From Thermoanaerobaculia bacterium (GTDB taxonomy: Bacteria; Acidobacteriota; Thermoanaerobaculia; Gp7-AA8), in assembly GCA_963715895.1 (NCBI GenBank), contig OY970284.1:4899892-4963891 (forward strand): 64,000 nt of DNA. Direction: 5' to 3'. How positions within the stretch are numbered: position 1 is the stretch's first letter; the number at the start of each line of letters is the position of its first letter. The notes beneath the pieces are model-generated. The model saw nothing but the letters and a program-made list of their open reading frames with translations. It was not told the origin of the DNA and ran no database searches. Shown here in pieces: positions 5,834 through 42,127 of this stretch. The position numbers and the translations under genes are program-made.

Positions 5834-5841
5834 GCGACCAG

Positions 5842-6852: not shown

Positions 6853-7040
6853 CTGCTCGATACCGCGTCCTGTACGAGGTGATTCGGAAGGATCCGAACC
6901 GGGGGCTTATGCAACGGCTGGGCGAGATTGCGCCACGCGACGCGGTAACGTTGGTAATCTGCGTCGCGAAGCTCGCAACGGAATGGCTCGTGTTGTCCAC
7001 GGTGCGTGTCTCTAGGAACGAATTTCCCGCCAGATTCTGA
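6773..7040 (+). pseudogene. RelE/ParE-like toxin remnant (no start, N-terminal part out of frame)
   Basis: The frame contains ...HRAVGGEVAARYRVLYEVIRKDPNRG..., which resembles the RelE/ParE core (elRiGdyRviYrvdde). No start codon or N-terminal half exists in this frame. It lies directly after the broken Phd gene. Confidence 0.3.
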
Positions 7041-7081
7041 GTCACTCGAAATTCCTCCGCCCGGGAAGGAAAACGTTTGGA

Positions 7082-9713: not shown

Positions 9714-9865
9714 TTGGGGGCACAGAAACATATGTTTGATCTGGACTGCTGACGCCCATGTACGCCGCCGCTCCCAACCAAAGAGGACCACGCTGAACTA
9801 CTCTGTTTGACCGAACCCATCGCTCGGAGGAATGGTTCACCCATTGCAAACGAAGGAGGACCAAC

Positions 9866-10339: not shown

Positions 10340-10371
10340 CCGCGAATCCCGTTCACCGCAACGTTAGCTTC

Positions 10372-11418: not shown

Positions 11419-11491
11419 CAATCGATCTCACGCGAAGGCGCGAAGGCGCGAAGAGAACCGACAACCGATAACCGACAACGCGGCGACGCCG

Positions 11492-12469: not shown

Positions 12470-12486
12470 GCCCGGAGTTTATCAGC

Positions 12487-12528
12487 GCAAAACAACGAGG
12501 ACCGCGCAGAACGCGCGGTCCTCGTTTT
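12487..12528 (-). terminator. rho-independent terminator (13-bp perfect GC-rich stem, 5-nt loop, flanking T-tract) downstream of the DUF11 gene
   Basis: ACGAGGACCGCGC-agaac-GCGCGGTCCTCGT spans 12495-12525. On the minus strand it is followed by TTGTTTTG. It lies 7 nt downstream of the minus-strand stop at 12535, and has T-runs on both strands. Confidence 0.65.
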
Positions 12529-27055: not shown

Positions 27056-29143
27056 ATGGAGCGCCTGGCGAAAGCACCGCTCCTCGGCGAGCCGCTCGCT
27101 GCCGTCGTTCGCCGCTGGCTCGGCGATAGCCCCTGGTCGCTGGCGCTGGCCGACGAGTTCCTCGGCACGAGCGGCTACAGCCGGCCGTTTGCGCAGTCGC
27201 TGGCGGCGCTCTCGCGCAATCGCGCCGAGAGCTGGCCGATGCGGAGAGCCGCCGCGCTGATGCTCGAGCACCAATTGCTCCGCATCGACGAACGCGCGAA
27301 CCGCGAACAGCTCTTCTGGCTCGATGAGTTGCACGTTCCCTCGGGTGACGAGCTGCGCGTCGAGGGTTACCGCTCGACATCACGCCGCGATGTGGCTGGC
27401 GAGCTGCGGATGCGGCTGGGGCGGCTGGCGCGCGTTCACGATGGCATTCGCGGTCATGACACAACGCCGGAAGCGCTCGGCGACTTTCTCAGCGTCGCCG
27501 CCCGCGACTGCCGCATCATCGCCGGCCGCTATCTATGGAATCCCGATGACGTCGTGGCCGAGATCGAGCGTCAGATCCGCCGCTCGCGCGGGATCCCCGC
27601 CGATGCGAAATACGTTCACCCCGACACCGACAAGGAGATTCTTCACCAGATCGAGCGCCTGCCGCTCATGGAGCGCGAGATCGTTCTCCGACTGATGCAA
27701 GGCTCCATGATCCGCTGGGTCGACGCCGCCACGCCCAGCGAGATCAATTCGCTCGTCGAATATCCACTCGGCTCAGTGGTGCTGGTCATCAAACCGCCCG
27801 GCAGCGACCTCGAGATCGAGATCAAGCGCGCCGGCGTCCGCGGCCCCCGCCCGTTCGACATCAAGATCTGGCGCGATGGCAAGCGCGTGCCGCGATCACA
27901 CCACCTGCAGGGCGGCTCGATGACGCATCTCCTGTCGTGGGAGTCATGCCAGTCGGGGTTCTTCTCCCGCTTCTACCGGCTGGTCCACGGCCAGGAGGCG
28001 TCGATGTCGCGGACCCTGCAGATCGCCAATGTCTTCGGCATCCCGTCGCGGGTTGGCGAGCTGACGACGGTGGAGTACTTCACGCGGCCGGATGTCTTCG
28101 ATCGGGAGTATCGAAAAGTCCACGCCGACCTTCATTTCATCAGCGACATCCTTTCGATGAAGGATCCGCGTGCGCCGGTCAAGCGCACCTCCGTACCGAA
28201 GAACGCCGTGGAGACGGCCGTCCGGCTACTCGGCGTGACCCGTCCCGCCCAGGCCGTGCAGGTCGGCAACTCGGCGTTCCGCCTCGACAAGCTCGCCCAC
28301 TACCTCGACGCCGGAGGTCCCGCGGAGTACTTCGGCGGCCTGGGGCGCGACTACACGCCGGACGATGCCCGCCGTTTCGCCGACGAACTGCTCGATGAAG
28401 TGCTCTGCGTCTATCAACCGCCGGACGCCCCCTATCGCACGCAACGGCAATACGTCGCTGCGGCGCTGCGCGTGCCGGCCAACCGCCAGCGCGCGCGGCA
28501 GAACTTCCTCGCCGTCGCCGGGCAGATCGGCCGCTTCTGGGGAACGCTCTACGCCGCCGGCGGTCACACGGACGGCGAGTCCTTCGTCGGCCGCAACACC
28601 GGCCTGCGCACGGTATGGGAGAACGGCGCCTGGCGCATCCGCATCACCTTCATGGACCACGACGGGATGACGCTCATCGGCCAGAATCTGGCCTGGTTCC
28701 ATCCCCGCGGCACCCTGGCCGATCAACGCGGCGATCACCACTTCATCTTCGGCCGCAACACCCGCGCCGTGCGGATGAAGGGAGCGCTCGGCTTCCTCCA
28801 GATGATCTACCGAACCGGCGAAGCCGGCCGGAAAGAGGGAGTGGTCACCCTCAAACGAGCGATGAAAGAGGCCTTCGACCGGACGCGCGAGTCCCTTCGC
28901 ACCGACCCCGAGGTACGCGAGCGATTCAACACATCATTCATCGACAGGCTCGAGTTCTGGCACGAGATGGTGAGCGGGTACCTTCAGACGAATAAGTCCC
29001 GCGCTGCCCGCGCGCGCTGGCGGCGTAAGACCGAGGAGACGATGCGCGCCCTCGCCTACCCGGACGATCTGTGGCAGGAGCACTTCTCGACGTTGCGGCG
29101 GAGATCACGGCTATTGAACAGCCTGGGGTTTTTGTACAGGTGA
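27056..29143 (+). CDS. large hypothetical protein (695 aa), possibly kinase-like
   Basis: Uninterrupted ORF 10 nt after the preceding gene. It contains an HxDLH-type segment (VHADLHFISDIL) reminiscent of APH/kinase catalytic loops. There is no confident family assignment. Confidence 0.5.
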   Translation: MERLAKAPLLGEPLAAVVRRWLGDSPWSLALADEFLGTSGYSRPFAQSLAALSRNRAESWPMRRAAALMLEHQLLRIDERANREQLFWLDELHVPSGDELRVEGYRSTSRRDVAGELRMRLGRLARVHDGIRGHDTTPEALGDFLSVAARDCRIIAGRYLWNPDDVVAEIERQIRRSRGIPADAKYVHPDTDKEILHQIERLPLMEREIVLRLMQGSMIRWVDAATPSEINSLVEYPLGSVVLVIKPPGSDLEIEIKRAGVRGPRPFDIKIWRDGKRVPRSHHLQGGSMTHLLSWESCQSGFFSRFYRLVHGQEASMSRTLQIANVFGIPSRVGELTTVEYFTRPDVFDREYRKVHADLHFISDILSMKDPRAPVKRTSVPKNAVETAVRLLGVTRPAQAVQVGNSAFRLDKLAHYLDAGGPAEYFGGLGRDYTPDDARRFADELLDEVLCVYQPPDAPYRTQRQYVAAALRVPANRQRARQNFLAVAGQIGRFWGTLYAAGGHTDGESFVGRNTGLRTVWENGAWRIRITFMDHDGMTLIGQNLAWFHPRGTLADQRGDHHFIFGRNTRAVRMKGALGFLQMIYRTGEAGRKEGVVTLKRAMKEAFDRTRESLRTDPEVRERFNTSFIDRLEFWHEMVSGYLQTNKSRAARARWRRKTEETMRALAYPDDLWQEHFSTLRRRSRLLNSLGFLYR

Positions 29144-29292: not shown

Positions 29293-31791
29293 TCATGCCG
29301 CTGCGTGGGCGGAAGACGGGGACGTTTGAGCCTGGACCTCGTCGTCAGCATCGATGAGCGTTGTCTTCGCGATCCAGTCGGGAACTGTGCGGCCAGTGGA
29401 ACGGATCAGGAGGGCGCCGAGCAGCCAGGGAATCACAGCAACCATCGTCACGAGGGTCCAACCGAGAAGAGTGATTTCACGAACGACGAACCTGGATGGC
29501 AGCACGCGAAAGCCGGCGGAACGCATTCCCGGTGAGCTCTGCAGCTTTCGTGAAATGGCGAAACGAATGATCAGGACCGCCAAGAGAGCGACTTCAGATC
29601 CAAACAGGGTCATTCGGTAGTACCGCAGCGCCACGCCTGCCAATGAGCACCACCCGACGATGAGCAACGGCACCGTCGCCGGAAGATACGTCGCGAAATC
29701 GATCAACTCGCCCCACATGATCTGGAGCACGCGATGCCATGGATTCTCCTCGGACAGCAGTGATGCTTCGGCACGCACAAACAGGTTGAAAATGATCACA
29801 AAGATTCCGAGAAGGAAGTAGCCGACCCATGCGCCACGGAGCTGCTGGCGGGTGATTTCTTGTACCGCCATTTCGACTTGTGGTAATCGAACGTCTAAGT
29901 CGTTCCGCAGTTGAAAAACCGCCGCAGCGGCTCCCGTCGACGAAGAGGAAGCGGTGAGCGTGGATTGCATGCGCTGGATCGCTTGCCCGATATCGCTGCG
30001 CGGGCTCATCGTTGGGCTCACGTACCGCGCCACATCGGTTGACAGCCGTTTCGTGGTCGCAGCGATCGCCTGCTCGATATCGCTGAGCCAAATCAGTCCG
30101 ACGACACCGGCCACAATGGCGATGCCGGACATGATGATCGACAGGCGGTGCCGCGCAATCACTCCCGCCACACCGAGCGCGGCAAACGAAAGGAACATCA
30201 GCAGGCCGGGATGCAACTGTGCGGGGTTGAGTGCAACAAGGTCGGTGAGCGTCAGGCTGATCGCCGACCAGAGCAGACCGACAAGACCGACGATCGGCGC
30301 AAGCTGCATGATCACTGTCGTCGTTTCGTTCCTCTTCTCCAGGCTTTCCAGCCGCTGTTCCTTGCGCTCCTGCTCAGCGGCAAGGCGTCCTACCCTACCA
30401 GCCCTGGCGTGATCGAGCTCGCGCCATCGCTTGACCACGGCACGCACGAGGAAATCGTGGGCGAGCTCGTACTCGACATCGCCGCGCACTTCGGTGCTGC
30501 GTACAAGGTCTCGCGACTCGAGCGCCGCGAGGGCCTTCCGAAGGTCCTCCACCGTTGCGTCCGATTTGTAGAGCGTCGCCGGACGGTGCATCTTGACCTC
30601 TCGAACGAGCCCCGTGAGCGACGACGCGCAACGATGGCGCTCATGGTCGGTCAGCTCGTAGAGTGCGTCGATCTGAAGATCGCGCACATCCGCCTTAGCA
30701 TCGAGCTCATCGTCCAGATACGTATCGAGAACATGTGCGGCCGGGGAATCAAAGCCTGACGAACCGAGTGCACGATAGTGATCGAGCGAGAACGGGCGCG
30801 CGTTTGACGTCTCACGCGTTTCCCACATCTTCCGAGCGACGAGTAGAAGGGCCGGTAATTCGACGAACTTCGTACTCCCCGTTGCCTGATCGGCCTCGAC
30901 GTGACCGAGAATACGCGACTCGAGCTTGTCGTATGCCTCTGCGAGGTCATTGATCACTTGCCGTACCGCGGCTGGTGCGAATTCGTAACGCGACTTCTTC
31001 AGAGGATCGGCAAGGATTTCTCTGGCCGCCCTGGCCGTGACGGGCTGCAGGCGGTAATAGTCGCGGAACATGTCGGGAATCGTTCGCCGGAGCGCGATCA
31101 TGCTCCCCACCCAGTCCTCACGCATTGAGAAAAGCAGCCGCACCTTGAGATTCGTGTCCGACCAGATGCGGCCGAGATCGTCGATGAACTCGTTCAGATT
31201 CGGCTCGTTCGCGTAATGGACGAACAGCTCCTCGAACTGATCGCAGACGATGAGAAACGGCAGATCGGGTGCCATTGCCGTCGCGGCGCACACAGCGTCG
31301 TAGGCGGATGTTCCGCTTGCGCGGAGGCGCTGCTCAAAATCGCGCTCGAGCTCTGGATCCTCTGGCAGCGCGTCGATGAAGGCGCGGAACCGGCCCGCCA
31401 GCCGGCGAAGCTCCTCGCGGTCGGAGACGGCGCTCTCGAGTTCAGCGAACATTTTCAGATCGAACCGCTGGCGCAACTCGTTCGGGAGTTGCCGGGCCAA
31501 GCAGCCACGAAAAGCGTCGTGCGGATTGGTACGCGCCCACGGCGGCCGTGGCCGCGTAAAAATGACAACATAGCCGAGGCGGCGGAAGGCCGGCGCGATG
31601 CCGGCGTGGAGCACGGAAGTCTTCCCGTTGCCCGACATCGCGTAGAGCAGCGATACACGCGACGCAGCCACCATATTGTTGATGGCGTGCAACTCGTCGC
31701 GTCGGGTCAGTTCGAGAAGCTGCCGGTGGTCGCTACGCTCGCCATCGAGGGGGCGGAGACCCGGCCACGGAGTGTCGTCGGTGGATGTCAT
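29293..31791 (-). CDS. STAND-class P-loop NTPase (nSTAND-like) with C-terminal multi-pass transmembrane domain
   Basis: The start is taken at MTSTDD (the ATG overlaps the SIR2 stop as ATGA). The N-terminus has PWPGLRPLDGERSDH. Walker A is LLYAMSGNGKTSVLHAG. Walker B is LPFLIVCDQFEELF (the DQFEELF signature). A coiled-coil (RELDHARAGRVGRLAAEQERKEQRLESLEKR) is followed by ~8 predicted TM helices. Confidence 0.75.
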   Translation of the reverse strand: MTSTDDTPWPGLRPLDGERSDHRQLLELTRRDELHAINNMVAASRVSLLYAMSGNGKTSVLHAGIAPAFRRLGYVVIFTRPRPPWARTNPHDAFRGCLARQLPNELRQRFDLKMFAELESAVSDREELRRLAGRFRAFIDALPEDPELERDFEQRLRASGTSAYDAVCAATAMAPDLPFLIVCDQFEELFVHYANEPNLNEFIDDLGRIWSDTNLKVRLLFSMREDWVGSMIALRRTIPDMFRDYYRLQPVTARAAREILADPLKKSRYEFAPAAVRQVINDLAEAYDKLESRILGHVEADQATGSTKFVELPALLLVARKMWETRETSNARPFSLDHYRALGSSGFDSPAAHVLDTYLDDELDAKADVRDLQIDALYELTDHERHRCASSLTGLVREVKMHRPATLYKSDATVEDLRKALAALESRDLVRSTEVRGDVEYELAHDFLVRAVVKRWRELDHARAGRVGRLAAEQERKEQRLESLEKRNETTTVIMQLAPIVGLVGLLWSAISLTLTDLVALNPAQLHPGLLMFLSFAALGVAGVIARHRLSIIMSGIAIVAGVVGLIWLSDIEQAIAATTKRLSTDVARYVSPTMSPRSDIGQAIQRMQSTLTASSSSTGAAAAVFQLRNDLDVRLPQVEMAVQEITRQQLRGAWVGYFLLGIFVIIFNLFVRAEASLLSEENPWHRVLQIMWGELIDFATYLPATVPLLIVGWCSLAGVALRYYRMTLFGSEVALLAVLIIRFAISRKLQSSPGMRSAGFRVLPSRFVVREITLLGWTLVTMVAVIPWLLGALLIRSTGRTVPDWIAKTTLIDADDEVQAQTSPSSAHAAA

Positions 31792-32810
31792 CGTTGTTGC
31801 CGCTCTTTCACCGCGTCGATCAGAAGCCTGAGAAAGCCGGCGGCATCGTGATCGATGATCGTCACCTCTTTCCTGGCCCAGAACCCGACCATCTTTTCCC
31901 ACCGCTCACGTTTCCTGTCATTGGTGACGCGATCGCTCTCCGGAACGAACTTCTGAATCGCGTACGACATGTTCGTTTTTGTCCGATCAGCAAGCGCTTT
32001 TTCCGCCGTCGCCTTGAAGATCACGCGGAAGTTCCAGTCGGTGAGGCTGTATCCAAGGAAGAGGATCGTATGTTTGGTGATGCGCGATACCACCTCGCGC
32101 AGCAGCCGCTTTGAAGGATCGGCGGCAATGGCATTTGTGAGGAAATTGATGTAGTCCTCTTCGGTGATGACCATGCCTTGCGGACGCGAGATGCAGCCGT
32201 GCATTTTGTAAAGATAGGTTTTGGCCTGTACCGGCTGCCAGTGCTCCTGAGGCCCTTTGATGGCGCCCCAGTTCAGCACCGTTTTCGGGTCATGATCGTT
32301 CGGGTCGGTACGGCCATCGTAGCCGATCACCCTGAGTTGCTGCTTCGGATCAGCCGTCTTGGCGTTGTACTCATTCTCGAGCGACTGGTCATAGTTCGTC
32401 GTGACGATGAAGAGTTGTTTTTGCGCGGCCTCAAGCAAATGCGCCAGTTCGGCGACTTGTTGGATCGTGGCGCTGGCCGGAAACTTGCCAATCTCATCCT
32501 TCAAAAAATTTTCCAACCCGTCCCGTGAATAGAACGACTCGTAATAGAACGCAGTCGTCGATAGCGGGATGTACTCCGGCGACGCCATGCCACATTTTTC
32601 CGCGAGGCTTGCCGACAACTCGGATCCGAGGGGCAGTCGATTCTCGCGAGGCAGCTTCGGATCGGTCGCGGCCCCCGCGCCGAGAAAGAGCACGCAATTG
32701 TCCTCGGCTCCTTCGTCGTCCGGCCGGCTCGTGAGTGCTCGCGCGAGCGTATCGATCGCACCGCGAACGGTGTACGAAATGCTCTCCTCTTGGCGGTCGG
32801 AATCGGCCAT
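31788..32810 (-). CDS. SIR2-like (SIR2_2 / DHS-like NAD-binding) protein
   Basis: CVLFLGAGAAT (GAG NAD loop), LFIVTTNYDQSLE, YKMHGCISRPQGMVITEEDY (catalytic His) and ILFLGYSLTDWNFRVIF. The start is at MADSDRQ with a GAGGGG RBS 4 nt upstream. Confidence 0.8.
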   Translation of the reverse strand: MADSDRQEESISYTVRGAIDTLARALTSRPDDEGAEDNCVLFLGAGAATDPKLPRENRLPLGSELSASLAEKCGMASPEYIPLSTTAFYYESFYSRDGLENFLKDEIGKFPASATIQQVAELAHLLEAAQKQLFIVTTNYDQSLENEYNAKTADPKQQLRVIGYDGRTDPNDHDPKTVLNWGAIKGPQEHWQPVQAKTYLYKMHGCISRPQGMVITEEDYINFLTNAIAADPSKRLLREVVSRITKHTILFLGYSLTDWNFRVIFKATAEKALADRTKTNMSYAIQKFVPESDRVTNDRKRERWEKMVGFWARKEVTIIDHDAAGFLRLLIDAVKERQQR

Positions 32811-32907
32811 CGCACCCCTCGCTGCTGAAGCGGCGTGTCTGACTATGATACTTGAAATAATTCCGGCGCGCTTTCTTACACACACGGCAGGGCTGGGGAT
32901 GAAGAGG

Positions 32908-34281
32908 CTACGGAGTGCTGACGGCGCTGAGTATCGCCGCGGCCACTTCGGCTTTGGCGATGTCGCTGTGCCCTGTGATTACGCTGTCCGCACGCATGTT
33001 GTAAATCCTGGCCGCCTGGAATTGGAATAACTGCTGGCCCGCGGCGAGCGGAACGGAGGTGTCGGCGTTGGACTTCTGCGCGCCGTTCGAGCCCATCCCG
33101 CCGTGCGGATCGTTCGCGTCGCCGAGGCCACTCGCGATATCGCCGTTCAGCCTCGACGCGAGCGGGTACGCAATGCCTACCGCACGGTCGTTGCGGGTGT
33201 GACTGATCACGATCGGGCCGCGCACCTTCTCGTTTGCCACAACTCCGTTGAAGAAGCCTTTTGTCCCTTTCGTGTCGAAGTTCGGCGAGAGACCGTTGTG
33301 GGAGTACGCAGCCTGCAGCAGCGCCATCGTCTGTATCGGACCGGGCGCGACGCTGCCGCCCTGTTTCTTTACGGCATCGGCGGAGGCGGTAACGAGCCGT
33401 CCGCCGAAACTGTGCCCGATCAGATGAAGCTTGAGCTCCTGCTTTCTCGCCAGGAGCTCGTCGAGCATTTGCGCCACGCCGTTCTTGCCGATTGCGCCGG
33501 CGCGTTCCTTCATCGTGAAGTAAGTGAAGAGGTTCAGAAGGTTTCGCGCTCCATTCTTGAACGAGGTGATTGGGTTCTGAAGACTTGCCGCTCCTCCGCC
33601 TGGCGTCCACGGCCGGAAGCCGGATGGGTTGAACGATGCTGCTACGCTTCCGCTCGGCGGCGCCTCGTCCCAAAAATCATCGTCACCGTCGGCCAGGCGT
33701 TTCAGCAGATCGTCGGGTGAGGCGGTAAAGAGCCGATTGGAGGCGTCATCATTCTGGTCAGCCGGAGCCTCTCCGGCGAAGGCGGACCGGATGGCGTTGA
33801 CGAATGCCGCACGCGCATCTGCGCTGCCATCGAGATTCGGGATGTGCTGAATGGCGGCATCGAGCTTCACCGCTGCGCTCTGCGCATTGGGGTCTTCGGA
33901 ACTTCCTGATGGCTTCGCCGCGATTGCTTCCTTGAGGCGCGTCACCTTCGACAGCAGCACTGCGTCCTGAGACGCCGAGGCCGCACCGCCGGGAATCAAC
34001 TCTTCATCGGCGAAGCGCTTCGATGGCCAGAAGATTGCCAGAATCGCGAAGGTTCGCCCGGGCAGCGGAAACCGCGGGAGGGCGTCGGCGATCTGCTTCG
34101 AAAGGCGCTCATAAAGGTTCCGTGCTTCCGCCTCGTCGTTGTTCCAGCCGTGAGACATGACGAAGAGATCGGTATAGGTTGCGATCGCGCCGAGGAGCTG
34201 GTCGAGTTGCGACCGGTCGACGATCGCGCCGTCTTTGTTGAATGGGACTTCAAAATAGTCGAAGCCATTGAGTTTGTTCAC
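32908..34281 (-). CDS. alpha/beta-hydrolase (lipase/esterase-like, GHSFGG nucleophile elbow)
   Basis: VMSHGWNND near the N-terminus and the GxSxG motif LIGHSFGGRLV. No signal peptide is evident. Confidence 0.65.
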   Translation of the reverse strand: MNKLNGFDYFEVPFNKDGAIVDRSQLDQLLGAIATYTDLFVMSHGWNNDEAEARNLYERLSKQIADALPRFPLPGRTFAILAIFWPSKRFADEELIPGGAASASQDAVLLSKVTRLKEAIAAKPSGSSEDPNAQSAAVKLDAAIQHIPNLDGSADARAAFVNAIRSAFAGEAPADQNDDASNRLFTASPDDLLKRLADGDDDFWDEAPPSGSVAASFNPSGFRPWTPGGGAASLQNPITSFKNGARNLLNLFTYFTMKERAGAIGKNGVAQMLDELLARKQELKLHLIGHSFGGRLVTASADAVKKQGGSVAPGPIQTMALLQAAYSHNGLSPNFDTKGTKGFFNGVVANEKVRGPIVISHTRNDRAVGIAYPLASRLNGDIASGLGDANDPHGGMGSNGAQKSNADTSVPLAAGQQLFQFQAARIYNMRADSVITGHSDIAKAEVAAAILSAVSTP

Positions 34282-34293
34282 GGTACTGTCCTT

Positions 34294-36024
34294 TCACACC
34301 GATTGAATGGCACGCATGAGGTCGACGAGGCCGCTTCCCTGGAAATATCGCTCGCGTTTCAAGTCGGTCGCAGAGTTGGTGAAGATCGACTTCACTTCGT
34401 CTGGGCGCCCGATGAACTCCTGCCGGATCGAAAGGAACGCGGCGATGGCGCCGGAGACGTGCGGCGCGGCCATGCTCGTTCCGCTGTCCTGGACGTACCA
34501 GGCCGTATCGGTGTTAGCACCCGGCGGATTCGGATCGACAGCGGTCACCTTCGACGGAGCGGCGGAAGAGAGGATCTTCTCGCCGGGCGCGACCAGGTCG
34601 GGCTTAAGTCGCCCGTCGCCCGTCGGTCCCTTCGAAGAAAAATATGAGACGCCGTAGACGTGCGGCATGTCGCGGTGCGTCGACCCGACGGTGATGGCGA
34701 AATCGGCATTGCCCGGATCGTTGATGGTAAGGGGCGCGCCCGCCGAAACGACGCCCCGCGCGAGCGTCTTCGTGAAAACGTAGCCGGTATTGCCCGCTGC
34801 TACCACGACGATCACTCCTGAGCGGACAAGGCGGTTCACCTCGACACACAGCGGACTTTGACCGCACGCGAACCACTCGGGGTCGAAGTCGTAGCCCAGG
34901 GACATATTCACGCCATGAACGAGCAACTTCCGGCCGTAGCCGTTGATCTGCTGGATATACGCCGTGGCTGCGATCAGATTCGACACTTCTCCGTTGCCAC
35001 TGTCATCGAGCACCTTCAGGCTCAACAGCTTGCATCGCGGAGCAACGCCGGCGATGGCGTCGAGCGGCGCGACCCGCTGCTGAATGTTGTTGCCGTCGTC
35101 GCGATAGGCACTCTGCGTGCGAATGGCTGTTCCACGGTGAGTGACCTTATCTCCATCCTGTATCGGAGGCGCGGCGGTGACTGCACCGGCAATGATTCCG
35201 GCGACGTGCGTGCCGTGACCAAAGCCATCGTGTTTGGCATTCCCGTTTCCGTTCAGGGCCGTGAAATCGCGATGGACGAGCGGAAGGTCGACGTCGAGAG
35301 TTCCGTATGTCTTGAAATGGGGGTGATCGCCCTCGATGCCGGAATCCAAGACAGCCCAGACCACTCCATCGCCGAGGGCGGAGAAAGCGCGGTGCGCGGC
35401 GTCAGCCTTAACCGTCGTGAGGGAGCGCGAGATTAGCGGCCGAAGCGGAAAATCGAGCCAGATGTGGTAGATCGCGCGCTGTTTGGCGTGTTCTCCGAAT
35501 TCCGCACGCTCACGGTCGAGCTCCAGCAACTCCGCCATCGCATGCGGGTCCGCCTCAGCGGTCGTCTCGCTAAGATCGCTCTCCGTGATCAGCAGCCGTG
35601 AATCGAGGTCTACGAGCCGCGCGATGCTCTCTGCGGAGAGCCGGGCAAAGATGTGCTGCTCCGACATCTTGCTCTTGGAGTTATTGATGCCCTCGGGCGG
35701 CACGGGCTCTCGCCCGCCGAAAACCTGGTTGAGGAGACGCCGGACCTTGTTCTCCGCGGCCTGCGTTCCGCCGCGCGCCTCGACATTGAGGTCGATGATG
35801 ACGGGATACGGAGAGGTCACCTTCCTCAGTTGGGGATTATTACGCCGGACACGCTCTGTCGTTCCGTCCCGACGTTCCTCCTCGATGAAATCCGATAGCG
35901 GAGGGGCGATGACCGCGGAGTGCATCTGTTCGGGCCTGAATTCGTTGAGGTCGTCGAGACCGTCCGGCGGCGTTTCGTTTTCGCCCATGTCAACTCTCCC
36001 ACTCAATATGGAGTGACGCGGCAA
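34294..36024 (-). CDS. S8 family (subtilisin-like) serine peptidase with ~200-aa N-terminal extension, apparently cytoplasmic
   Basis: Catalytic triad motifs AVLDSGI (Asp), HGTHVAGII (His) and GTSMAAPHVSG (Ser). No signal peptide. The stop is 12 nt upstream of the hydrolase start. Confidence 0.85.
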   Translation of the reverse strand: MPRHSILSGRVDMGENETPPDGLDDLNEFRPEQMHSAVIAPPLSDFIEEERRDGTTERVRRNNPQLRKVTSPYPVIIDLNVEARGGTQAAENKVRRLLNQVFGGREPVPPEGINNSKSKMSEQHIFARLSAESIARLVDLDSRLLITESDLSETTAEADPHAMAELLELDRERAEFGEHAKQRAIYHIWLDFPLRPLISRSLTTVKADAAHRAFSALGDGVVWAVLDSGIEGDHPHFKTYGTLDVDLPLVHRDFTALNGNGNAKHDGFGHGTHVAGIIAGAVTAAPPIQDGDKVTHRGTAIRTQSAYRDDGNNIQQRVAPLDAIAGVAPRCKLLSLKVLDDSGNGEVSNLIAATAYIQQINGYGRKLLVHGVNMSLGYDFDPEWFACGQSPLCVEVNRLVRSGVIVVVAAGNTGYVFTKTLARGVVSAGAPLTINDPGNADFAITVGSTHRDMPHVYGVSYFSSKGPTGDGRLKPDLVAPGEKILSSAAPSKVTAVDPNPPGANTDTAWYVQDSGTSMAAPHVSGAIAAFLSIRQEFIGRPDEVKSIFTNSATDLKRERYFQGSGLVDLMRAIQSV

Positions 36025-36181
36025 GGGATTTCCCTACCCGGCGTAGCGCTGCGGCATCCGCACCATCGCCGCCAGCTCACCCATGCACCCGCAGCCCGGT
36101 CGCCTCTCGTCAAACTTCGCGGAACCGAGTCTCAAAGTCCCCGATGTGGGCGCGGCTATTTAGCGCCGCGCCCACATTTTC

Positions 36182-37660
36182 TCATTTCGAGCTGATGAGC
36201 TTCGTCAGATCGGGTAACCGGTAACTCAGTCCGACGTGAGCGCCGATTCGGTTTTTCACGTCGCCGATGAACTCCGCTTTGTTGGCCCAGGTGATCGACA
36301 CCGGGATCGTCATCATGTCGCCAAATGGGACCGAGAGCGTGATCGTACCGACCCAACGGTTGTTGCTCCGCACGTTGCCTTTTTGATTGAAGCCGCCTTC
36401 GATTGACAGATCGGCGTGCAGCGGCTTGCCGGTGATGTCGGTACCGAGTTGCCGCCCACCTTGTGCTTTGACTTTCAGCACGTCACTCTGCGGATTGTTG
36501 ATGGCCATGAAACCCTCCACCGGCGGATCAAGTCCGAGGGATGCGAGAGAGTAGTGCTGCGCGCGGTCGTACGACGCCGTGAAGACGAGCTTGTCGGTCG
36601 ACATCCCGTTCGTCGCGTATTCGTTGAGCTGAGTGCGAAAACAGGAGCCGATAGCAATGTCTGTGCGCTCGTCCCGACACGCGTTACGGAGAGTGTTCAT
36701 GTTTACGCGGCCAAAGTGCAGTTCGACGGAAGCCGCCTGCGAGCGCGGTCCGCCGAAAAGCGCCGGATGATGCACCGTGATCGTTCCGGTAGCCTGCGGC
36801 TGGTTGTCAATCATCGTCGCGATCAAGTCGAGGTGATTGGCGTCGTAGATCGCTTTCGCGGTCTTGGCACGCGCGGCATCAACCGCTATCTCCTCCTTAA
36901 TGATCGCGATCACCTCATTCGGGTGATCCGCCTTGCCCACAATTCGTTTGTTGTCTTCGCCAGCTTCATGGTACTCATCACTCAGCCTTTTTGCCAACAA
37001 AGCAGACGCACCATTGCTCTGCACGAACGCCTCAAGGAGCAGCGATACCAGCGGCCGGTATGCGGCCGGCGTACGCCCCCAGCATCTGTCACCTGCTGGA
37101 CGATCAGGCCCGCATCGAACTGTCGCCGCGGAGTAGGATGCGGAAAACGTAAGATCGTTCTGGCTCCCGATCCGTTTTTCCAATGCCGTGACAGTCTTAT
37201 CGCGAATACCATCGGGGATGGCGTTCTTCACAACGTCGGCAACAGCCGGTTGCGTCACGGTCAACGTTGTACCGATGAGCGTGCTGCCTTGACGCAATGG
37301 ATTGAAACGGACGATGAGCGCCTGCCCGTTATCCGACTCGTCCACCTTGTTGATGGCAAAGCTGAAGAGATTCAGGAAGTCTTCGTACGAGTTGTGAATG
37401 CGCGCCGCGAAGGTAGGTGGCGCAACAGTTGGACGATTCGCCGTAACGACGTCGTTCTCTTGTTTGGCTTGCGCCGTCGCGACTGCGTTTTTCCCGGCGG
37501 CGAGTTGGGCCTGCGGTGTCGCCATCTGAGCCAGGTAGAAGGCTTTTGCCCCTTCGAAGGTGCAATGTTCCTTGTCGACAGTGGGATCGCACGGTGTCAC
37601 CACCTCACCAAACACGCTGGTGGCGACGAACATAAAGAATGGAATCAGAAGTCGTTTCAT
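36182..37660 (-). CDS. secreted hypothetical protein (~492 aa)
   Basis: The start is taken at MKRLLIPFFMFVATSVFG (signal peptide; AAGGAG RBS upstream) rather than the upstream extension of the listed ORF. No known motif. Confidence 0.55.
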   Translation of the reverse strand: MKRLLIPFFMFVATSVFGEVVTPCDPTVDKEHCTFEGAKAFYLAQMATPQAQLAAGKNAVATAQAKQENDVVTANRPTVAPPTFAARIHNSYEDFLNLFSFAINKVDESDNGQALIVRFNPLRQGSTLIGTTLTVTQPAVADVVKNAIPDGIRDKTVTALEKRIGSQNDLTFSASYSAATVRCGPDRPAGDRCWGRTPAAYRPLVSLLLEAFVQSNGASALLAKRLSDEYHEAGEDNKRIVGKADHPNEVIAIIKEEIAVDAARAKTAKAIYDANHLDLIATMIDNQPQATGTITVHHPALFGGPRSQAASVELHFGRVNMNTLRNACRDERTDIAIGSCFRTQLNEYATNGMSTDKLVFTASYDRAQHYSLASLGLDPPVEGFMAINNPQSDVLKVKAQGGRQLGTDITGKPLHADLSIEGGFNQKGNVRSNNRWVGTITLSVPFGDMMTIPVSITWANKAEFIGDVKNRIGAHVGLSYRLPDLTKLISSK

Positions 37661-37670
37661 GGTCTGCTCC

Positions 37671-38033
37671 TTACAGCGGGCTGAATTCCCATGTCGGCTC
37701 ATTGAGCGTATCGGGATCGAGGTCCACCACATGATGCGAGGGGTCGATCGCCGTCTCAAACGTCACCGTCGTATCGAGCGTTGTGGCACTACTCGCTGTC
37801 GCCGCGATTGCGATTTGATAGTGCTGATTCCCAGCGGCGTCGAAATCGAATGACACTCCGTGCTCGAGGTCGTCCGAGGTCCACGTCTCTCTGAGAGTGA
37901 CAGGAGCATCCGGATCGGTGACGTCCTGGTAGAAGAAGAGCTTCCCGGCATAACCGGTAACGTTGTCTCCAGGTGTCGTCGTAAAACTGACCTTGTTGGG
38001 TGCCGGAACAGTGTAGCGGCCAATAGCGGGCAT
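37671..38033 (-). CDS. hypothetical small protein (120 aa), co-oriented 10 nt upstream of the secreted protein gene
   Basis: A GGAGG RBS precedes the ATG. The protein is acidic and Thr-rich with no known motif. Confidence 0.45.
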   Translation of the reverse strand: MPAIGRYTVPAPNKVSFTTTPGDNVTGYAGKLFFYQDVTDPDAPVTLRETWTSDDLEHGVSFDFDAAGNQHYQIAIAATASSATTLDTTVTFETAIDPSHHVVDLDPDTLNEPTWEFSPL

Positions 38034-38227: not shown

Positions 38228-38944
38228 TCAATCCAGAAACTGATGCCGTTTCAACCCCTCATACAGCGACGTATCGGGATACGAAGCATCCTTATCCCTC
38301 CCCTCCCTCCTCCACCGTTCGTTCCACAGATGAACGCCGAGGGAATCGGGAGGGAGTGGGGGGCGGCGGGGGGAGATGATCGTTAACCAGTCCGCCTCGC
38401 CGATGGGGCAGAAGATCCGGGAGGGGCGGACGTAGCGCTCCCGGGCGAAGCGGCGCACGGTTTCGGCGACGAGACGTGGGCCGACTTCGCCCCATTTCAG
38501 GGCCGACGGGTCCTTGGAGGCACACACATCCCACGCGTACTGCATCGCCTCACACCCGCGCGGCGCTTTGATCGCGCCGGCGCAGATGACGTCCACTCCA
38601 TGCTTCCCCGGCTCGCTGGCGAAGACGTAGGGATCGTCGGTGGTGAACGGCTGGAGGCAGACCTGGTCGGTGTCGACCCACCAGCCGCCGCGGTCGAGGA
38701 GGAGTTTGTAGCGGAAGAAGTTCGAGAAGCCGGAGTAGGAGTTGTGGTCGCGGTAGACGAAGATCGATGAGCTCGGAAGGATCTCGTTTCCGTCGCGGAC
38801 GATGGTGCCCTCGGGGATCCGGGCCACATCGCCGTAGACGTAGAGATGAAACTCGTGGCCGTGGTGGAGAAACGACTGGATGGTCAGCCGTTCCATTGAT
38901 GATAGAGACGGTCCGATCCAGAGGCTCTGGATCACATCGGCCAC
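38228..38944 (-). CDS. glycosyltransferase with DXD sugar-binding region (Gly_transf_sug / GT32-like)
   Basis: MADVIQSLWIGPSLSSMERLTIQSFLHHGHEFHLYVY and the DxD motif WWVDTD. Confidence 0.65.
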   Translation of the reverse strand: MADVIQSLWIGPSLSSMERLTIQSFLHHGHEFHLYVYGDVARIPEGTIVRDGNEILPSSSIFVYRDHNSYSGFSNFFRYKLLLDRGGWWVDTDQVCLQPFTTDDPYVFASEPGKHGVDVICAGAIKAPRGCEAMQYAWDVCASKDPSALKWGEVGPRLVAETVRRFARERYVRPSRIFCPIGEADWLTIISPRRPPLPPDSLGVHLWNERWRREGRDKDASYPDTSLYEGLKRHQFLD

Positions 38945-40077
38945 TGCAGCATTTCCTCCCAGCGCCCCATTACTTCGTCCACGCTGAACCGCTGCACAAC
39001 CTCGGGGGCACGCGCGCCGAGGCGCGAGCGCTCCGCTTCATCGCGCATCAGGCCGCCGAGCGCGCGGGCCATCGCGCCGACTTCGTCCTTCGGCACCAGC
39101 ACACCGTCGACGCCGTGGCGGACAATCATCCGGACGCCGGGAGAGCAGTCGAAGGCGATGACCGGAAGACCGGAGGCCATCGCTTCGCAGAGAGCGTTCG
39201 GAAATCCCTCCCGGCGCGATGGCTGCACGTAGAGATCGGCGCGCGCCAGCACATCGTCGTTGTCCGAGGTGAAACCGCCCAGAGTGATGCGGTCAGCGAC
39301 CCCGAGCTTCGCGATGTAGGCCTCGAGTTTCTCGCGATCGCTGCCACGGCCCCATATCTCCAGTCTCCATTGTGGATGTTCGGCGGCGATCCGCGCGAAT
39401 GACTTGATCAGCAGGTCGTAGCCCTTCTCCCACGACAACCGGCCGAGCGATGCCAGCACGCGCGTGCCGTTGCGGTCGTCCCGACGTGGCACGTCGCGCG
39501 GGAAGACAGCATTCGGAATCCATGCGCCGCGCCGAACCCCTTGCCGGACGTAGTAGGCGAGGTCGCCCGCGGTCAGCGCGACCACCGCCGTCGCCAGCCG
39601 ATAGGCCTCGGTGCGCAGTTTCTCGTTCGCGTAGGGCCTGGCGATGCCGCGCTCGGAGACGAACACGCGGACGCCGAGCCCGCGCGTGGCGGCGATGGTG
39701 CGGATGTTCGTCGAGTTGATCATCGAGATGATGGCCTGCGGCCGCGTATCGATGATGGTCTTCCGGAGCGTGGCCAGGAGCGGGTGAAGTGGCCGAAAGT
39801 ACTCGCGCGATTTGGGAGTGAAGATCGCCAGCGCAGCATCGATCTGCCGCATCATTTCCGCCGGCGGCTCGGGCCGCTCCCGGAACGGGACTTCCCAGTT
39901 GAGGTCGTGGTGTACGACCCGCTCATCGAGCACGTAAGCCACCGGTTCTTTCGTCCCCTGGTACATCGTGACGATGGAAGGAGTCCACCCGCGCGCCGCC
40001 CAGTAGTTGGCCATGTTGACCGTGGCGCGCTCGGAGCCTCCTCCGCGAAGCGATGCGATGACGAACGTGATGCGCAT
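38932..40077 (-). CDS. glycosyltransferase family 4
   Basis: The GT4 C-terminal signature EGFPNALCEAMASGLPVIAFD and a Rossmann N-terminus MRITFVIASLRGGGSE. Confidence 0.85.
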   Translation of the reverse strand: MRITFVIASLRGGGSERATVNMANYWAARGWTPSIVTMYQGTKEPVAYVLDERVVHHDLNWEVPFRERPEPPAEMMRQIDAALAIFTPKSREYFRPLHPLLATLRKTIIDTRPQAIISMINSTNIRTIAATRGLGVRVFVSERGIARPYANEKLRTEAYRLATAVVALTAGDLAYYVRQGVRRGAWIPNAVFPRDVPRRDDRNGTRVLASLGRLSWEKGYDLLIKSFARIAAEHPQWRLEIWGRGSDREKLEAYIAKLGVADRITLGGFTSDNDDVLARADLYVQPSRREGFPNALCEAMASGLPVIAFDCSPGVRMIVRHGVDGVLVPKDEVGAMARALGGLMRDEAERSRLGARAPEVVQRFSVDEVMGRWEEMLQWPM

Positions 40078-40080
40078 GGG

Positions 40081-40818
40081 TCAACGCGCCCGATACGCGG
40101 CCACGGAGGATTCGAAGTCGGCGGGCGGCGGCATCGACACCAGCGGCACGTGCGTGGCGTCACCGCGGCCGTGGGCGACGAGGAGCGGCGCGCGCGACCG
40201 GAGGATCGCCGGCGTGGTGTAGCGGACGATGAAGCCGGTACGCGGCGCGGAGGAATGGTTCGCGTTCGAGCCATGGACGATGTCGACGTGATGCAACGAC
40301 ATCTCGCCGGGGCGAAGCACGACGTCGACGGCATCGTCGTCGTCGACCTCCGCGGCGATCTCCTGGCCGTGGCTGAGTAAATTTAGAGGCTCTGCTGTGA
40401 CGGCGTGCGCCAGCTTCACTTTGTGCGATCCCGGAACCACGCGCATGCAACCGCTGGCGACCGTGCTGGGGGTGAGCGCGATCCAGGCCGAGAGCGCGGG
40501 AGCGTCGCCGAGAAAGTCTGCGTAATGGCCATCCTGATGCCAGGCCACGAACGACTCATCATGCGGAGGCTTCGAGAGCATCAGCGAGCCCCAGGCCAGA
40601 ACATCGTCGCCCAGGATCTCCCGTACGGTGTCGACGATCACGTGGTGCGTGGCGATCTCCCTGGCCCATTGGAAGAAGAGATGGAGCTGGTCGAGACGCC
40701 GGTCGCTCCCGCACTCGATCATCGTGCGGCTGATGTCGGCTCCGTAACGTTCCACCTCCGCGTCCGTCAAGACGCGCAGAGGAAAGAGGATGCCGTCGCG
40801 CGCGAATTTCTCTTTCAC
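40081..40818 (-). CDS. phytanoyl-CoA dioxygenase (PhyH) family Fe(II)/2OG oxygenase
   Basis: WHQDGHY (HxD) and a distal His in SLHHVDIVHGS. Confidence 0.7.
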   Translation of the reverse strand: MKEKFARDGILFPLRVLTDAEVERYGADISRTMIECGSDRRLDQLHLFFQWAREIATHHVIVDTVREILGDDVLAWGSLMLSKPPHDESFVAWHQDGHYADFLGDAPALSAWIALTPSTVASGCMRVVPGSHKVKLAHAVTAEPLNLLSHGQEIAAEVDDDDAVDVVLRPGEMSLHHVDIVHGSNANHSSAPRTGFIVRYTTPAILRSRAPLLVAHGRGDATHVPLVSMPPPADFESSVAAYRAR

Positions 40819-42065: not shown

Positions 42066-42127
42066 CTGGCAGGGGGGAGCAAACGGGCGCGTGCGCACCG
42101 GCGTGTGCCGTTCGGGCAGTGTTGCCG

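Follow-up and report, generated by a model that had tools for sequence, protein, structure and literature searches.

The four open reading frames at 29293-36024 of the window (the whole 64,000-nt stretch of DNA analysed) were found to lie co-oriented on the minus strand, as an earlier note on this DNA had reported. They probably represent two separate conserved gene pairs lying side by side rather than a four-gene system, and the explanation that we favour is an island carrying two independent two-gene conflict modules, probably anti-phage and of the abortive-infection type. This reading draws on domain identities, catalytic motifs, conservation of the pairs, a SIR2-nSTAND1 fusion, patchy distribution and variable neighbourhoods.

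The SIR2 and NTPase genes

The gene at 31788..32810 (minus strand) encodes a SIR2_2-type protein of 340 aa (Pfam SIR2_2 PF13289, E=4.3e-24) with the motifs G44-A-G46, T137-T-N-Y-D141 and M203-H204-G205. The GAG, TTNYD, YKMHG and GYSLxDWNFRVIFKATAE sequences are kept across the partner SIR2 proteins, which bears out the original assignment to a SIR2_2 type with GAG, TTNYD and a catalytic MHG. Partial matches were obtained with the PADLOC models for PDC-S25, ThsA, Dsr1 and LmuA, and the nearest solved structures are ThsA 7uxt, 9v0g, DSR2 and KomC. On these matches the protein is closest to defence NADases (ThsA, DSR2, KomC, PDC-S25) and not to sirtuin deacetylases, and it is the putative NADase effector of cassette 1. 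Direct reading of the sequence (...CGATGACA...) confirmed that its stop overlaps the start of the NTPase gene in an ATGA.

This second gene (29293..31791, minus strand; 832 aa from ATG) encodes a STAND NTPase of the nSTAND1 family that ends in a 7-TM module; the protein matches Pfam nSTAND1 PF20703 at E=3.4e-26 and 93 bits (cut-off 27) and has about 70 family members. Conserved columns, secondary structure and fold matches delimit a cytoplasmic NOD (aa 1-446; 30454..31791, minus strand) with a P-loop, a helical domain and a winged helix, and Foldseek matches to the N-terminal ~460 aa were Orc1/Cdc6, NB-ARC (NRC1), Apaf-1 and Avs3. Across 33 relatives, the PWPGLRP motif in the N-terminus of the NOD is conserved (P8, L12 and L15 nearly invariant), the Walker A motif (aa 52-59, SGNGKTS; 31615..31638, minus strand) has an invariant G54 with S53, G56, K57 and S59 nearly so, and every residue of the Walker B motif (aa 184-188, DQFEE; 31228..31242, minus strand), namely D184, Q185, F186, E187 and E188, is invariant. 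The nSTAND-type identity first suggested by DQFEELF is upheld by PF20703; the Walker motifs, whose absence had been named as evidence against the proposed conflict system, are present in this protein and in its relatives. We propose this protein as a membrane-embedded sensor/switch of cassette 1.

A SIR2_2 gene was observed directly upstream of the NTPase at every related locus inspected, either overlapping it or within ~40 nt (L001-L008, L010 and L018) or as a partial copy (L009 and L011), and the genes flanking the pair are unrelated between loci. For at least 42 of the 70 NTPase relatives, a contig of equal length carries one of the 120 closest SIR2 homologues of the stand-alone kind, which places both partners on a shared contig. 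In a single protein, P0095, an nSTAND1 NTPase is fused to a SIR2 of the type seen in the window (29% identity over 313 aa), and amongst distant nSTAND1 loci a SIR2 homologue lies immediately upstream in about 29 of 69. Conservation of the pair at every inspected locus, together with the fused relatives, supports a functional link between the SIR2 protein and the membrane-anchored STAND NTPase, so the coupling suggested in the earlier note stands. The pair is rare: a search of 185,579 species representatives gave only four close matches, in MAGs of Acidobacteriota, and none was found on plasmids or phages. The genes beside the homologues are for the most part housekeeping genes and not known defence genes, so that no "defence-island" score could be demonstrated.

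The NTPase has no name in PADLOC, NCBIfam or the literature searched. Neither the NTPase nor the hydrolase is matched by a PADLOC model, and three of the four proteins of the block have no NCBIfam model; within these sources the combination indeed maps to no named system.

The predicted membrane module of the NTPase

In the AlphaFold2 model (pLDDT 85.5), residues 447-514 form one unbroken helix that enters the membrane part, and hydropathy together with the AF2 helices places seven TM helices after it (29296..30453, minus strand). Seven segments were also counted by hydropathy in most of the 33 relatives; the C-terminal membrane anchor proposed earlier is thus retained, with seven helices and not about eight. 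The topology given here is that predicted from hydropathy and AlphaFold2, and the TM5-TM6 loop is short and carries two arginines yet is placed outside by the model. The variable TM3-TM4 loop (aa ~573-650), which ranges from ~30 to ~200 aa across the 33 relatives, is probably extracytoplasmic. Amongst 1.84 billion representatives, the full module was found only in the family of this NTPase.

An RDD-like domain made up of the last four TM helices (aa ~650-800; 29392..29844, minus strand) was recognised through the Pfam RDD matches of relatives and a profile search, with D698, G755, R771, W778 and D805 nearly invariant. Pfam RDD PF06271 is matched by 13 of 33 family members (best 5e-10), the window NTPase itself falling short of the Pfam threshold, and the RDD part of the profile also picks up numerous stand-alone RDD proteins of 130-220 aa. 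A weak, sub-threshold MotA/ExbB-like similarity was also seen in TM1-3 of five of the 33 members. According to PMC12419801, the RDD domain has a conserved intramembrane binding site, and its fusion to kinases and to VanZ lipid-modifying domains is frequent. An RDD protein has been reported to act as a Na+(Li+,K+)/H+ antiporter (PMC5996927).

The S8 peptidase and alpha/beta hydrolase genes

The gene at 34294..36024 (minus strand) encodes a subtilisin-like (S8) peptidase of the cytoplasm. Its longest reading frame gives 576 aa, with an alternative start possible at M13, and it matches Pfam Peptidase_S8 PF00082 (E=3.5e-44) and the PADLOC model 'subtilase' PDLC03014 (8e-51). The sequence shows no signal peptide, and no family matched its ~215-aa N-terminal extension, in agreement with its first description as a cytoplasmic subtilase with a long N-terminal extension. 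Twelve nucleotides away, a gap verified by direct reading, lies an alpha/beta hydrolase of 457 aa (32908..34281, minus strand), described earlier as lipase-like, with a Ser/Asp/His catalytic set (HGW; GHSFG, S291; D365; H438). A helical insert at aa ~103-200 is bordered on either side by a disordered linker with conserved PGGAA/GGAA motifs.

Homologues of the hydrolase number more than 2,200. Out of 80 metagenome loci, 71 were informative, and the S8 gene adjoins the hydrolase in 70 of these, being upstream in 69, while SIR2/nSTAND1 is present in just one; the two are also adjacent in L088, L090, L091 and L092. The pair was found without SIR2/NTPase in four phyla, for example in Methylomonas, Burkholderia and Rhodococcus. 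Judged by gene neighbourhood, S8 and hydrolase are an obligate, very widespread and uncharacterised pair, in which we propose the hydrolase as the effector of cassette 2.

Composition and genomic setting

The GC content of the block is 60.7% compared with 63.5% for the whole window, and a value this low is found in just 9% of segments of the same size. GC3 is the clearer compositional signal: it is 0.72-0.75 in the four genes and 0.75-0.85 in flanking genes (0.81-0.85 in the majority), the DegT gene being the sole flanking gene at 0.75. The low composition described earlier was recovered on both measures, but the low-GC3 island extends to the ORF at 36182-37759 (GC3 0.69). The region is probably a small, horizontally acquired island. 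The earlier claim that cell-wall and metabolic neighbours are absent was wrong, as the window contains a GT4/PhyH/DegT/PhyH sugar-modification cluster (38.9-42.9 kb) as well as a GT2 and an MnxG-like oxidase (20-26.7 kb). These neighbours are not conserved beside homologues, with the exception of a similar sugar-modification cluster near the pair in L001.

A terminator scan located a 14-bp GC-rich palindromic hairpin (36143..36178, no strand assigned) between the S8 gene and the ORF at 36182-37759. Transcription of the gene upstream of S8 probably ends there, in which case S8 would open a new transcription unit. The 97-nt spacer between the two cassettes (32811..32907, minus strand) is relatively AT-rich, with a Shine-Dalgarno-like GAGGGG preceding the SIR2 ATG, and the same scan detected no terminator-like hairpin in it.

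Alternative explanations

Given the common strand, the gene gaps of 12 nt, 97 nt and -4 nt, the absence of a terminator-like hairpin between hydrolase and SIR2 with a strong one just upstream of S8, and the low GC3 common to all four genes, the block might be one integrated system, in which a membrane STAND senses infection and controls two effector arms, a SIR2 NADase and a protease-activated lipase-like hydrolase. The order S8 / hydrolase / SIR2 / nSTAND1 does recur in L095, flanked by transposases, with an nSTAND1 of a different subfamily that carries WD40 repeats and has 24% identity to the window NTPase. In three further loci (L067, L072 and L073) the arrangement is CHAT-SIR2 / nSTAND1-WD40 / C25 peptidase / hydrolase homologue. 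The C25 gene of L072 has its start in an overlap with the stop of the nSTAND1 gene, and the hydrolase gene lies 12 nt beyond it; hydrolase / C25 / CHAT proteins are also encoded on a Nostoc plasmid. Against this, neither S8 nor hydrolase was found at the other nSTAND1-7TM loci inspected that had flanking sequence, among the roughly 23 S8-hydrolase loci that extend 3 kb or more downstream L095 alone has SIR2-nSTAND1, and S8-hydrolase pairs occur alone in four phyla. Each pair is self-contained, in unrelated neighbourhoods, and since the pairs are apart in nearly all genomes each would function without the other there. A single integrated system is accordingly regarded as unlikely. The co-occurrence of homologues named as a check in the earlier note is found within each pair and only rarely between pairs, and the four-gene system that it described is not supported in that form. 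Adjacency of both pairs is rare but recurrent. The gene order of L095, an independent recurrence, and the C25/hydrolase pairs inside CHAT-SIR2/nSTAND1-WD40 operons argue that the two modules are not always independent, and facultative coupling is possible.

A role outside immunity appears somewhat less likely still. SIR2/nSTAND1-7TM would then act in signalling or regulation at the membrane, for instance by coupling envelope or lipid-precursor sensing to protein deacylation or ADP-ribosylation, and S8-hydrolase an intracellular processing or lipid-turnover pair. RDD domains are indeed widespread amongst non-defence membrane proteins, with the antiporter and the VanZ and kinase fusions cited above, transcription regulators exist amongst STAND NTPases, and homologue loci have mostly housekeeping neighbours. 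The sugar-modification cluster shared by the window and L001 points the same way but is missing at other loci, while the very patchy distribution (four close matches), the variable neighbourhoods, a GC3 foreign to the surrounding genome, the affinity of the SIR2_2 type to defence NADases and the definition of the nSTAND1 clade in conflict systems (PMC8195603) all speak for conflict. It is very improbable that the TM module is itself the effector, with NOD activation oligomerising the seven-TM/RDD part into a membrane-permeabilising assembly and SIR2 acting as co-effector or sensing partner. Bacterial immunity often employs TM domains as effectors, a STAND survey counts them among effector types, and both the MotA/ExbB-like similarity and the reported ion transport by an RDD protein would suit such a role. 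STAND proteins, however, carry the sensor C-terminally and effectors N-terminally, and the N-terminal side is already held by SIR2, fused in P0095 and as the immediately upstream gene in the window NTPase family; the TM3-TM4 loop is moreover hypervariable in length and content, as expected of a recognition surface.

Proposed function and relation to known systems

Under the preferred explanation of two independent conflict modules, module 1 would be a SIR2-STAND (NLR-like) immune architecture divided between two genes and anchored in the membrane. The NTPase would sit in the inner membrane, its NOD on the cytoplasmic side and connected by one long helix to the seven TM helices. The TM module, with its RDD-like four-helix domain and variable TM3-TM4 loop, would replace the C-terminal soluble repeat sensors of other STANDs and may sense an infection cue associated with the membrane or envelope. 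Nucleotide-dependent oligomerisation of the NOD would then recruit or activate the translationally coupled SIR2, which would hydrolyse NAD+ so that the infected cell stops growing. Module 2 would be a separate, widespread, obligate pair of cytoplasmic enzymes, in which S8 may control the hydrolase, possibly by cutting the conserved GGAA linkers around the helical insert.

The GAG, TTNYD and catalytic-His motifs are shared with Thoeris ThsA, DSR1/DSR2, SIR2-HerA and Kongming KomC, but the window SIR2 lacks the SLOG domain and TIR partner of Thoeris and the large C-terminal sensor of DSR, and it is paired with a STAND NTPase in place of a HerA/FtsK-type hexameric ATPase. Tmn and PifA are reportedly membrane-associated KAP P-loop NTPases of phage defence or exclusion, said to have TM helices inside the NTPase domain and no SIR2 partner; the window NTPase is likewise a P-loop NTPase tied to the membrane, but has a SIR2 partner and TM helices outside the NTPase domain. 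The S8 protein resembles IetAS (S8 peptidase IetS with ATPase IetA) as a possible intracellular S8 defence component, although its partner is an alpha/beta hydrolase and not an ATPase. It matches the PADLOC IetS models weakly (2e-11), and scores 23 bits against a cut-off of 900 with NCBIfam IteS_antiphage.

The coupling of SIR2 to STAND has already been described in Avs5 and in nSTAND1 conflict systems (Kaur et al., 2021; PMC8195603). In Avs5 (AVAST type 5; EfAvs5, PMC11897194) a SIR2 NADase-type effector is likewise coupled to a STAND NTPase, and the same logic of sensing, NTPase-driven oligomerisation and SIR2 activation would be expected. Avs5, however, is one polypeptide with a soluble C-terminal sensor, whereas in the window SIR2 is a separate, translationally coupled gene and the NTPase, to which no PADLOC Avs model matches, is of the nSTAND1 clade with a C-terminal 7-TM/RDD membrane module. 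There is also a parallel with the nSTAND1 systems of Kaur, Burroughs, Iyer and Aravind (eLife 2021), as the window NTPase is a clear PF20703 member and its relatives have N-terminal effectors, including SIR2, that are fused or encoded upstream; the C-termini of the relatives observed, by contrast, are WD40, TPR, FGE-sulfatase or HEAT sensors, and a 7-TM/RDD C-terminus on nSTAND1 was not found described in the literature searched. The claim of novelty therefore needs narrowing: SIR2 with STAND is a known theme, and the novelty lies in the combination of the 7-TM/RDD module at the C-terminus with the split-gene layout.

The SIR2 and nSTAND1 pair

The gene at 29293-31791 (minus strand) encodes an NTPase of 832 aa, counted from an ATG that overlaps the stop codon of the SIR2 gene; the ATGA overlap described in the earlier note can be read directly as ...CGATGACA... 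The protein matches Pfam PF20703, nSTAND1 (93.2 bits, gathering score 27.1, residues 28-466), as do all 33 of its aligned relatives. Little or no variation occurs across the alignment of these relatives in either Walker A, SGNGKTS (GxGKTS, aa 52-59), or Walker B, DQFEE (aa 184-188), so that the Walker motifs and nSTAND assignment first proposed from the sequence have been borne out by the HMM score as well as by conservation. The N-terminal PWPGLRP motif, to which attention had also been drawn, is kept among the relatives as PW...L..L. An AlphaFold2 model built from the same alignment has a mean pLDDT of 85.5, and its first ~460 residues gave Foldseek matches to Orc1/Cdc6, the NB-ARC of NRC1, Apaf-1 and Avs3 (~450-500 columns, E 2e-7 to 5e-4). 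As modelled, this N-terminal part has the P-loop, helical and winged-helix domains that make up the NOD of STAND proteins, which places the NTPase in the STAND superfamily. A profile search of solved structures returned no relative, NCBIfam offered no name and PADLOC gave no match at E<=0.01.

By sequence, then, the NTPase belongs to nSTAND1 and its partner, a 340-aa protein encoded at 31788-32810 (minus strand), to SIR2_2 (PF13289, 85.6 bits, cut-off 24.5). The GAG loop, TTNYD and MHG recognised earlier are present as G44-A-G46, T137-T-N-Y-D141 and the catalytic H204 in YKMHG; GAG, N139 and D141 (both within TTNYD) and H204 align with ThsA and are conserved throughout all partner proteins. 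The nearest solved or modelled relatives of the SIR2 protein are the defence NADases ThsA, DSR2, KomC and PADLOC PDC-S25, the likeness covering the catalytic core only. NCBIfam has no name for it and its PADLOC matches are partial.

A search of 5.8 billion proteins recovered about 70 relatives of the NTPase with the same overall build, nSTAND1 followed by a hydrophobic C-terminus, nearly all of them metagenomic and sometimes annotated as RDD. The SIR2 search yielded at least 120 stand-alone proteins (~320-340 aa, 33-52% identity), and at least 42 of the 70 NTPase relatives lie on a contig equal in length to that of one or another of these proteins. The earlier note had allowed that homologues of these genes might never occur together; for the SIR2 and NTPase they do, since a SIR2_2 gene of ~320 aa lies directly upstream in all six relatives whose loci were fetched for this comparison (P0004, P0006, P0007, P0012, P0023 and P0028), either overlapping the NTPase gene or within ~40 nt of it, while the genes beyond differ from locus to locus. 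By tblastn over the fetched homologue loci, SIR2 was found upstream of nSTAND1-7TM in L001-L011 and L018. This gene order shows SIR2 and nSTAND1-7TM to be a two-gene unit that has been conserved.

Only four close matches to the NTPase were found among 185,579 species-representative genomes (Thermoanaerobaculia, one Acidobacteriota MAG and two Bryobacterales MAGs), indicating that the nSTAND1-7TM family is rare and centred on Acidobacteriota. There were no tblastn matches on 72,556 plasmids, and viral contigs gave one distant relative of the NTPase and nothing else. Further away, at ~25% identity and with C-termini of WD40 or other kinds, about 29 of 69 nSTAND1 loci have a SIR2 homologue just upstream; judged by these neighbourhoods, SIR2 with nSTAND1 is a broader theme than the 7TM family. 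In some proteins, P0095 among them, a SIR2 of the window type (29% identity over 313 aa, GYSLxDWNFRV included) is fused to an nSTAND1 NTPase. It is mainly this 'Rosetta-stone' fusion, together with translational coupling, that points to SIR2 as the output of the NTPase.

The membrane module

The C-terminal 340 aa of the NTPase consist of seven TM helices and loops, and in the AlphaFold2 model an unbroken helix (447-514) runs from the NOD into this membrane part. The C-terminal TM helices of the earlier note are therefore present, but number seven by hydropathy and not about eight: three, a loop of ~75 aa and then four. Most of the 33 relatives have the same layout, with a loop of ~30 to ~200 aa. 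When the C-terminal ~350 aa were run as a profile against 1.84 billion representatives, the entire module was found only in the nSTAND1-7TM family (38 matches at E<=1e-10). Proteins named RDD by Pfam also match the last four TM helices, among them many stand-alone ones of 130-220 aa and, at their C-termini, others of ~550 aa. Thirteen of the 33 family members match Pfam RDD (PF06271) directly, the best at 5e-10, although the window NTPase does not at E<=0.01. Membership of RDD calls for a score above the gathering threshold together with one conserved Arg and two Asp among the TM helices; D698, R771 and D805 are nearly invariant in the RDD-like part of the 33-relative alignment. For RDD, one paper reports cation/proton antiport (PMC5996927), and Burroughs et al. 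describe a conserved binding site that lies within the membrane and faces the cytoplasm (PMC12419801).

If the N-terminus is cytoplasmic, the predicted topology would turn the variable TM3-TM4 loop outward. In some distant members (P0021, P0023, P0024, P0026, P0034 and P0059) this loop swells to 150-200 aa and apparently resembles a beta-rich extracytoplasmic domain (e.g. GQLNPGDTDVYAFAV...YYLLLDQGFGGDYTVNVS), in which no Pfam domain was recognised. A weak, sub-threshold likeness to the MotA/TolQ/ExbB proton channels was also seen in the connecting helix and TM1-TM2 (30166-30366, aa 476-542), with E=0.006 for the window and a best value of 0.0012 among the five of 33 relatives that share it, and may be due to chance.

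The S8 peptidase and hydrolase pair

The S8 peptidase (34294-36024, minus strand) matches Peptidase_S8 with 151.7 bits and carries the triad motifs DSGI, HGTHVAG and GTSMAAPHVSG; its translation has no signal peptide and begins with an extension of ~215 aa without a family match. The alpha/beta hydrolase gene (32908-34281, minus strand) lies 12 nt away. Both this spacing and the long N-terminal extension, as noted before, agree with the direct reading and with Pfam. The PADLOC 'subtilase' profile PDLC03014, to which the S8 matches strongly, could not be connected with a named system, and no mention of it was found in the literature searched. The hydrolase itself has only sub-threshold Pfam matches and no name in PADLOC or NCBIfam; it is nevertheless an alpha/beta hydrolase by fold and by its nucleophile elbow GxSxG with Asp and His, the invariant residues being HGW, GHSFG (S291), D365 and H438.

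More than 2,214 homologues of the hydrolase were found. A family-alignment search provided 80 metagenome loci, 71 of them with enough flank to show the neighbouring gene, and in these the S8 gene lies directly upstream in 69, downstream in one (L107) and was not detected in one (L127). The S8/hydrolase pair is obligate and abundant in soil bacteria. The pair stands alone on a forest-soil contig (70-78% identity), in Methylomonas, and on Burkholderia and Rhodococcus plasmids. The 85 ORFs beside such pairs, in which a third gene or a defence context was sought, were heterogeneous and mostly housekeeping; the few defence matches among them (Shedu SduA, SIR2-APAZ/pAgo and PDC-S15) are insufficient for enrichment. 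Phage records gave no match to the hydrolase. At L088, a 989-aa WD40-repeat protein (2186-5155, minus strand) is encoded back-to-back with the closest S8/hydrolase pair (70-78% identity); its N-terminal ~500 aa have no assigned domain, and a tblastn with nSTAND1 as query gave no match to it.

In the hydrolase model a helical insert (aa ~103-200) is held between two low-confidence linkers (89-102 and 201-236), both of which carry conserved PGGAA/GGAA motifs despite their low confidence. In hydrolases whose partner is a C25 peptidase, the insert is missing and the linkers differ. The conserved linker motifs beside the insert, together with the C25-paired forms, invite the speculation that the S8 peptidase may process the hydrolase at its linkers, with predicted cuts near residues 95-102 and 229-233.

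Relationship between the two pairs

Judged from their neighbourhoods, the two pairs usually do not appear to be linked. One exception is the fetched locus L095 (6168-14051), where S8, hydrolase, SIR2 (301 aa) and nSTAND1-WD40 (1237 aa) follow one another in the order and orientation of the window; upstream of them lie a TnsA-like gene and a transposase gene of the IS5 family, and the downstream gene is of HTH (transposase-like) type. At 24-27% identity, the SIR2 and NTPase of this locus are of another subfamily, which makes their juxtaposition with S8 and hydrolase an independent event. The loci L067, L072 (Lysobacter, 3794-12488) and L073 (3462-12664), with which L093 (7971-15724) is grouped, carry CHAT-SIR2, nSTAND1-WD40, a C25-like peptidase and a hydrolase homologue; such four-gene operons occur in Lysobacter and Casimicrobiaceae-type betaproteobacteria, and those of L072 show gene overlaps or tight spacing. 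A Nostoc plasmid encodes the hydrolase, a C25 peptidase and two CHAT proteins. By these pairings the hydrolase family swaps its peptidase partner between S8 and C25, and 'peptidase plus this hydrolase' behaves like a portable module, at times joining STAND/CHAT systems. Its occasional insertion into CHAT/STAND operons makes the pair a candidate effector module.

Genomic context

The block has a GC content of 60.7% against 63.5% for the window, and a GC3 of 0.72-0.75 in its four genes against 0.75-0.85 (mostly 0.81-0.85) in the flanking genes. The lower-GC island of the earlier note therefore holds for GC3, while the dip in GC is modest, and the stretch extends to an ORF at 36182-37759 (minus strand) whose GC3 is the lowest (0.69) and which accordingly belongs to it. 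This ORF encodes 525 aa with an internal signal-peptide-like start (MKRLLIPFFMFVATSVFG); it has no match in Pfam, PADLOC or NCBIfam and is absent beside homologues of either pair.

The claim that cell-wall or metabolic neighbours are lacking does not hold, as GT4, PhyH, DegT and PhyH genes lie at 38.9-42.9 kb and a GT2 gene at 25.9-26.7 kb. The former are part of a sugar-modification cluster (38228-42904, minus strand) of PhyH, DegT aminotransferase, PhyH, GT4 glycosyltransferase and a 238-aa ORF, in which the GT4 also matches Pfam GT4-conflict at 1e-10. The same PhyH/DegT/PhyH/GT4 order was found at L001 (17518-21480), ~5 kb from the SIR2/nSTAND1-7TM pair and on its opposite side, which suggests a related organism with the cassette elsewhere. 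The cluster was considered as a functional partner and rejected, being found near the pair only in the window and L001, and on opposite sides.

A perfect 20-nt inverted repeat (CATCCGCACCATCGCCGCCA / TGGCGGCGATGGTGCGGATG) has its arms 3.6 kb apart, at 36055-36074 (spacer upstream of S8) and 39687-39706 (within the GT4 gene); related copies of 18-22 nt lie at 26133, 27508 and 39844. In 15 kb, chance is unlikely to produce an exact match of 20 nt. No tRNA genes were found, nor flanking direct repeats delimiting a mobile element. The promoter scan, which found none, assumes an E. coli-type sigma-70 and is uninformative for this host. Further out, a 1889-aa ORF (20090-25759, minus strand) matches NCBIfam MnxG, a manganese-oxidising multicopper oxidase, with 1094 bits in total over five stretches (equivalog cut-off 3100). 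A 695-aa ORF (27056-29143, plus strand, GC3 0.84) is convergent with the NTPase gene and has no Pfam, PADLOC or NCBIfam match.

Comparison with known systems

The defining features of Avs5, Thoeris, DSR, SIR2-HerA and IetAS were each tested and are not found here, so the block is none of these. Avs proteins unite effector, NTPase and sensor in a single polypeptide and end in a soluble repeat sensor that binds a phage protein, whereas the window SIR2 is a separate ORF overlapping the NTPase start and the C-terminus of the NTPase is membranous; the Avs profiles of PADLOC-DB are likewise unmatched at E<=0.01. Thoeris requires a ThsA with a SLOG/STALD domain and an adjacent TIR protein, ThsB; the block contains no TIR gene, and of the SIR2 core the ThsA models match residues ~195-299 alone. 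DSR1 and DSR2 run to ~1,000-1,200 aa, beginning with SIR2 and ending in a large sensor, against 340 aa here, of which the Dsr1 model matched just 66. IetAS combines an IetA ATPase with an IetS-type S8 above the NCBIfam cut-off; the window S8 scores 23 bits against 900 and neighbours a hydrolase instead. Neither cassette was described in the literature searched (nSTAND1 with SIR2; STAND with SIR2, RDD and transmembrane; subtilase with hydrolase), the coverage of which is incomplete and makes this weak evidence. By analogy, the SIR2/nSTAND1-7TM system probably acts like Avs5.

Interpretation

With moderate confidence, we read the block as a small acquired island with two conflict modules that are independent of each other, the SIR2/nSTAND1-7TM pair being a split, membrane-anchored variant of SIR2-STAND immunity. 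That all four genes form a single integrated system, as the earlier note had it, seems improbable. Their shared strand and GC3, the hairpin-free spacer of 97 nt between hydrolase and SIR2 and the hairpin upstream of S8 fit co-transcription or mere co-residence; tblastn found neither S8 nor hydrolase in L001-L011 and L018, and the S8/hydrolase pair stands alone elsewhere. A role in non-immune signalling is rated slightly lower again; the genes around S8/hydrolase pairs are mostly housekeeping, and the SIR2 core is closest to defence NADases. It is very unlikely that the TM module is an effector and not a sensor: a predicted output already exists in the SIR2, and the STAND sensor is the region C-terminal to the NOD, a position which the TM module takes in the window NTPase. 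Under the two-module reading, annotation should score the block as two systems, not one.

A more detailed picture is possible, though we regard it as doubtful in its entirety. The nSTAND1-7TM protein would be a transmembrane NLR-like receptor sensing infection at or in the cytoplasmic membrane, where one or both of two features would detect the cue: the pocket that RDD has within the membrane, and the hypervariable TM3-TM4 loop outside the cytoplasm. The signal would pass over the membrane to the cytoplasmic NOD and turn on the separate putative SIR2 NADase. The S8/hydrolase pair (>2,200 homologues) would in addition be a protease-activated lipase module pluggable into STAND systems. If true, this would be STAND sensing from outside the cytoplasm, for which no prokaryotic precedent was found in the literature and libraries searched.

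The bacterial STAND/NLR-like immune proteins of the surveyed literature have C-terminal repeat-type sensors of phage proteins and are taken to be cytoplasmic. What is new here is a conserved seven-helix membrane module, combining an RDD-like part with a variable, predicted outward-facing loop, in the sensor position, the classic SIR2 output being encoded by a gene of its own. The S8/hydrolase pair, unnamed and widespread and with no function assigned, is a candidate effector module. If the SIR2/nSTAND1-7TM pair works as inferred, STAND immunity would reach cell-envelope cues, the enigmatic RDD domain would have a role that can be tested, and a compact two-gene system would be at hand for the study of signal transfer across the membrane to a switch of NLR type.
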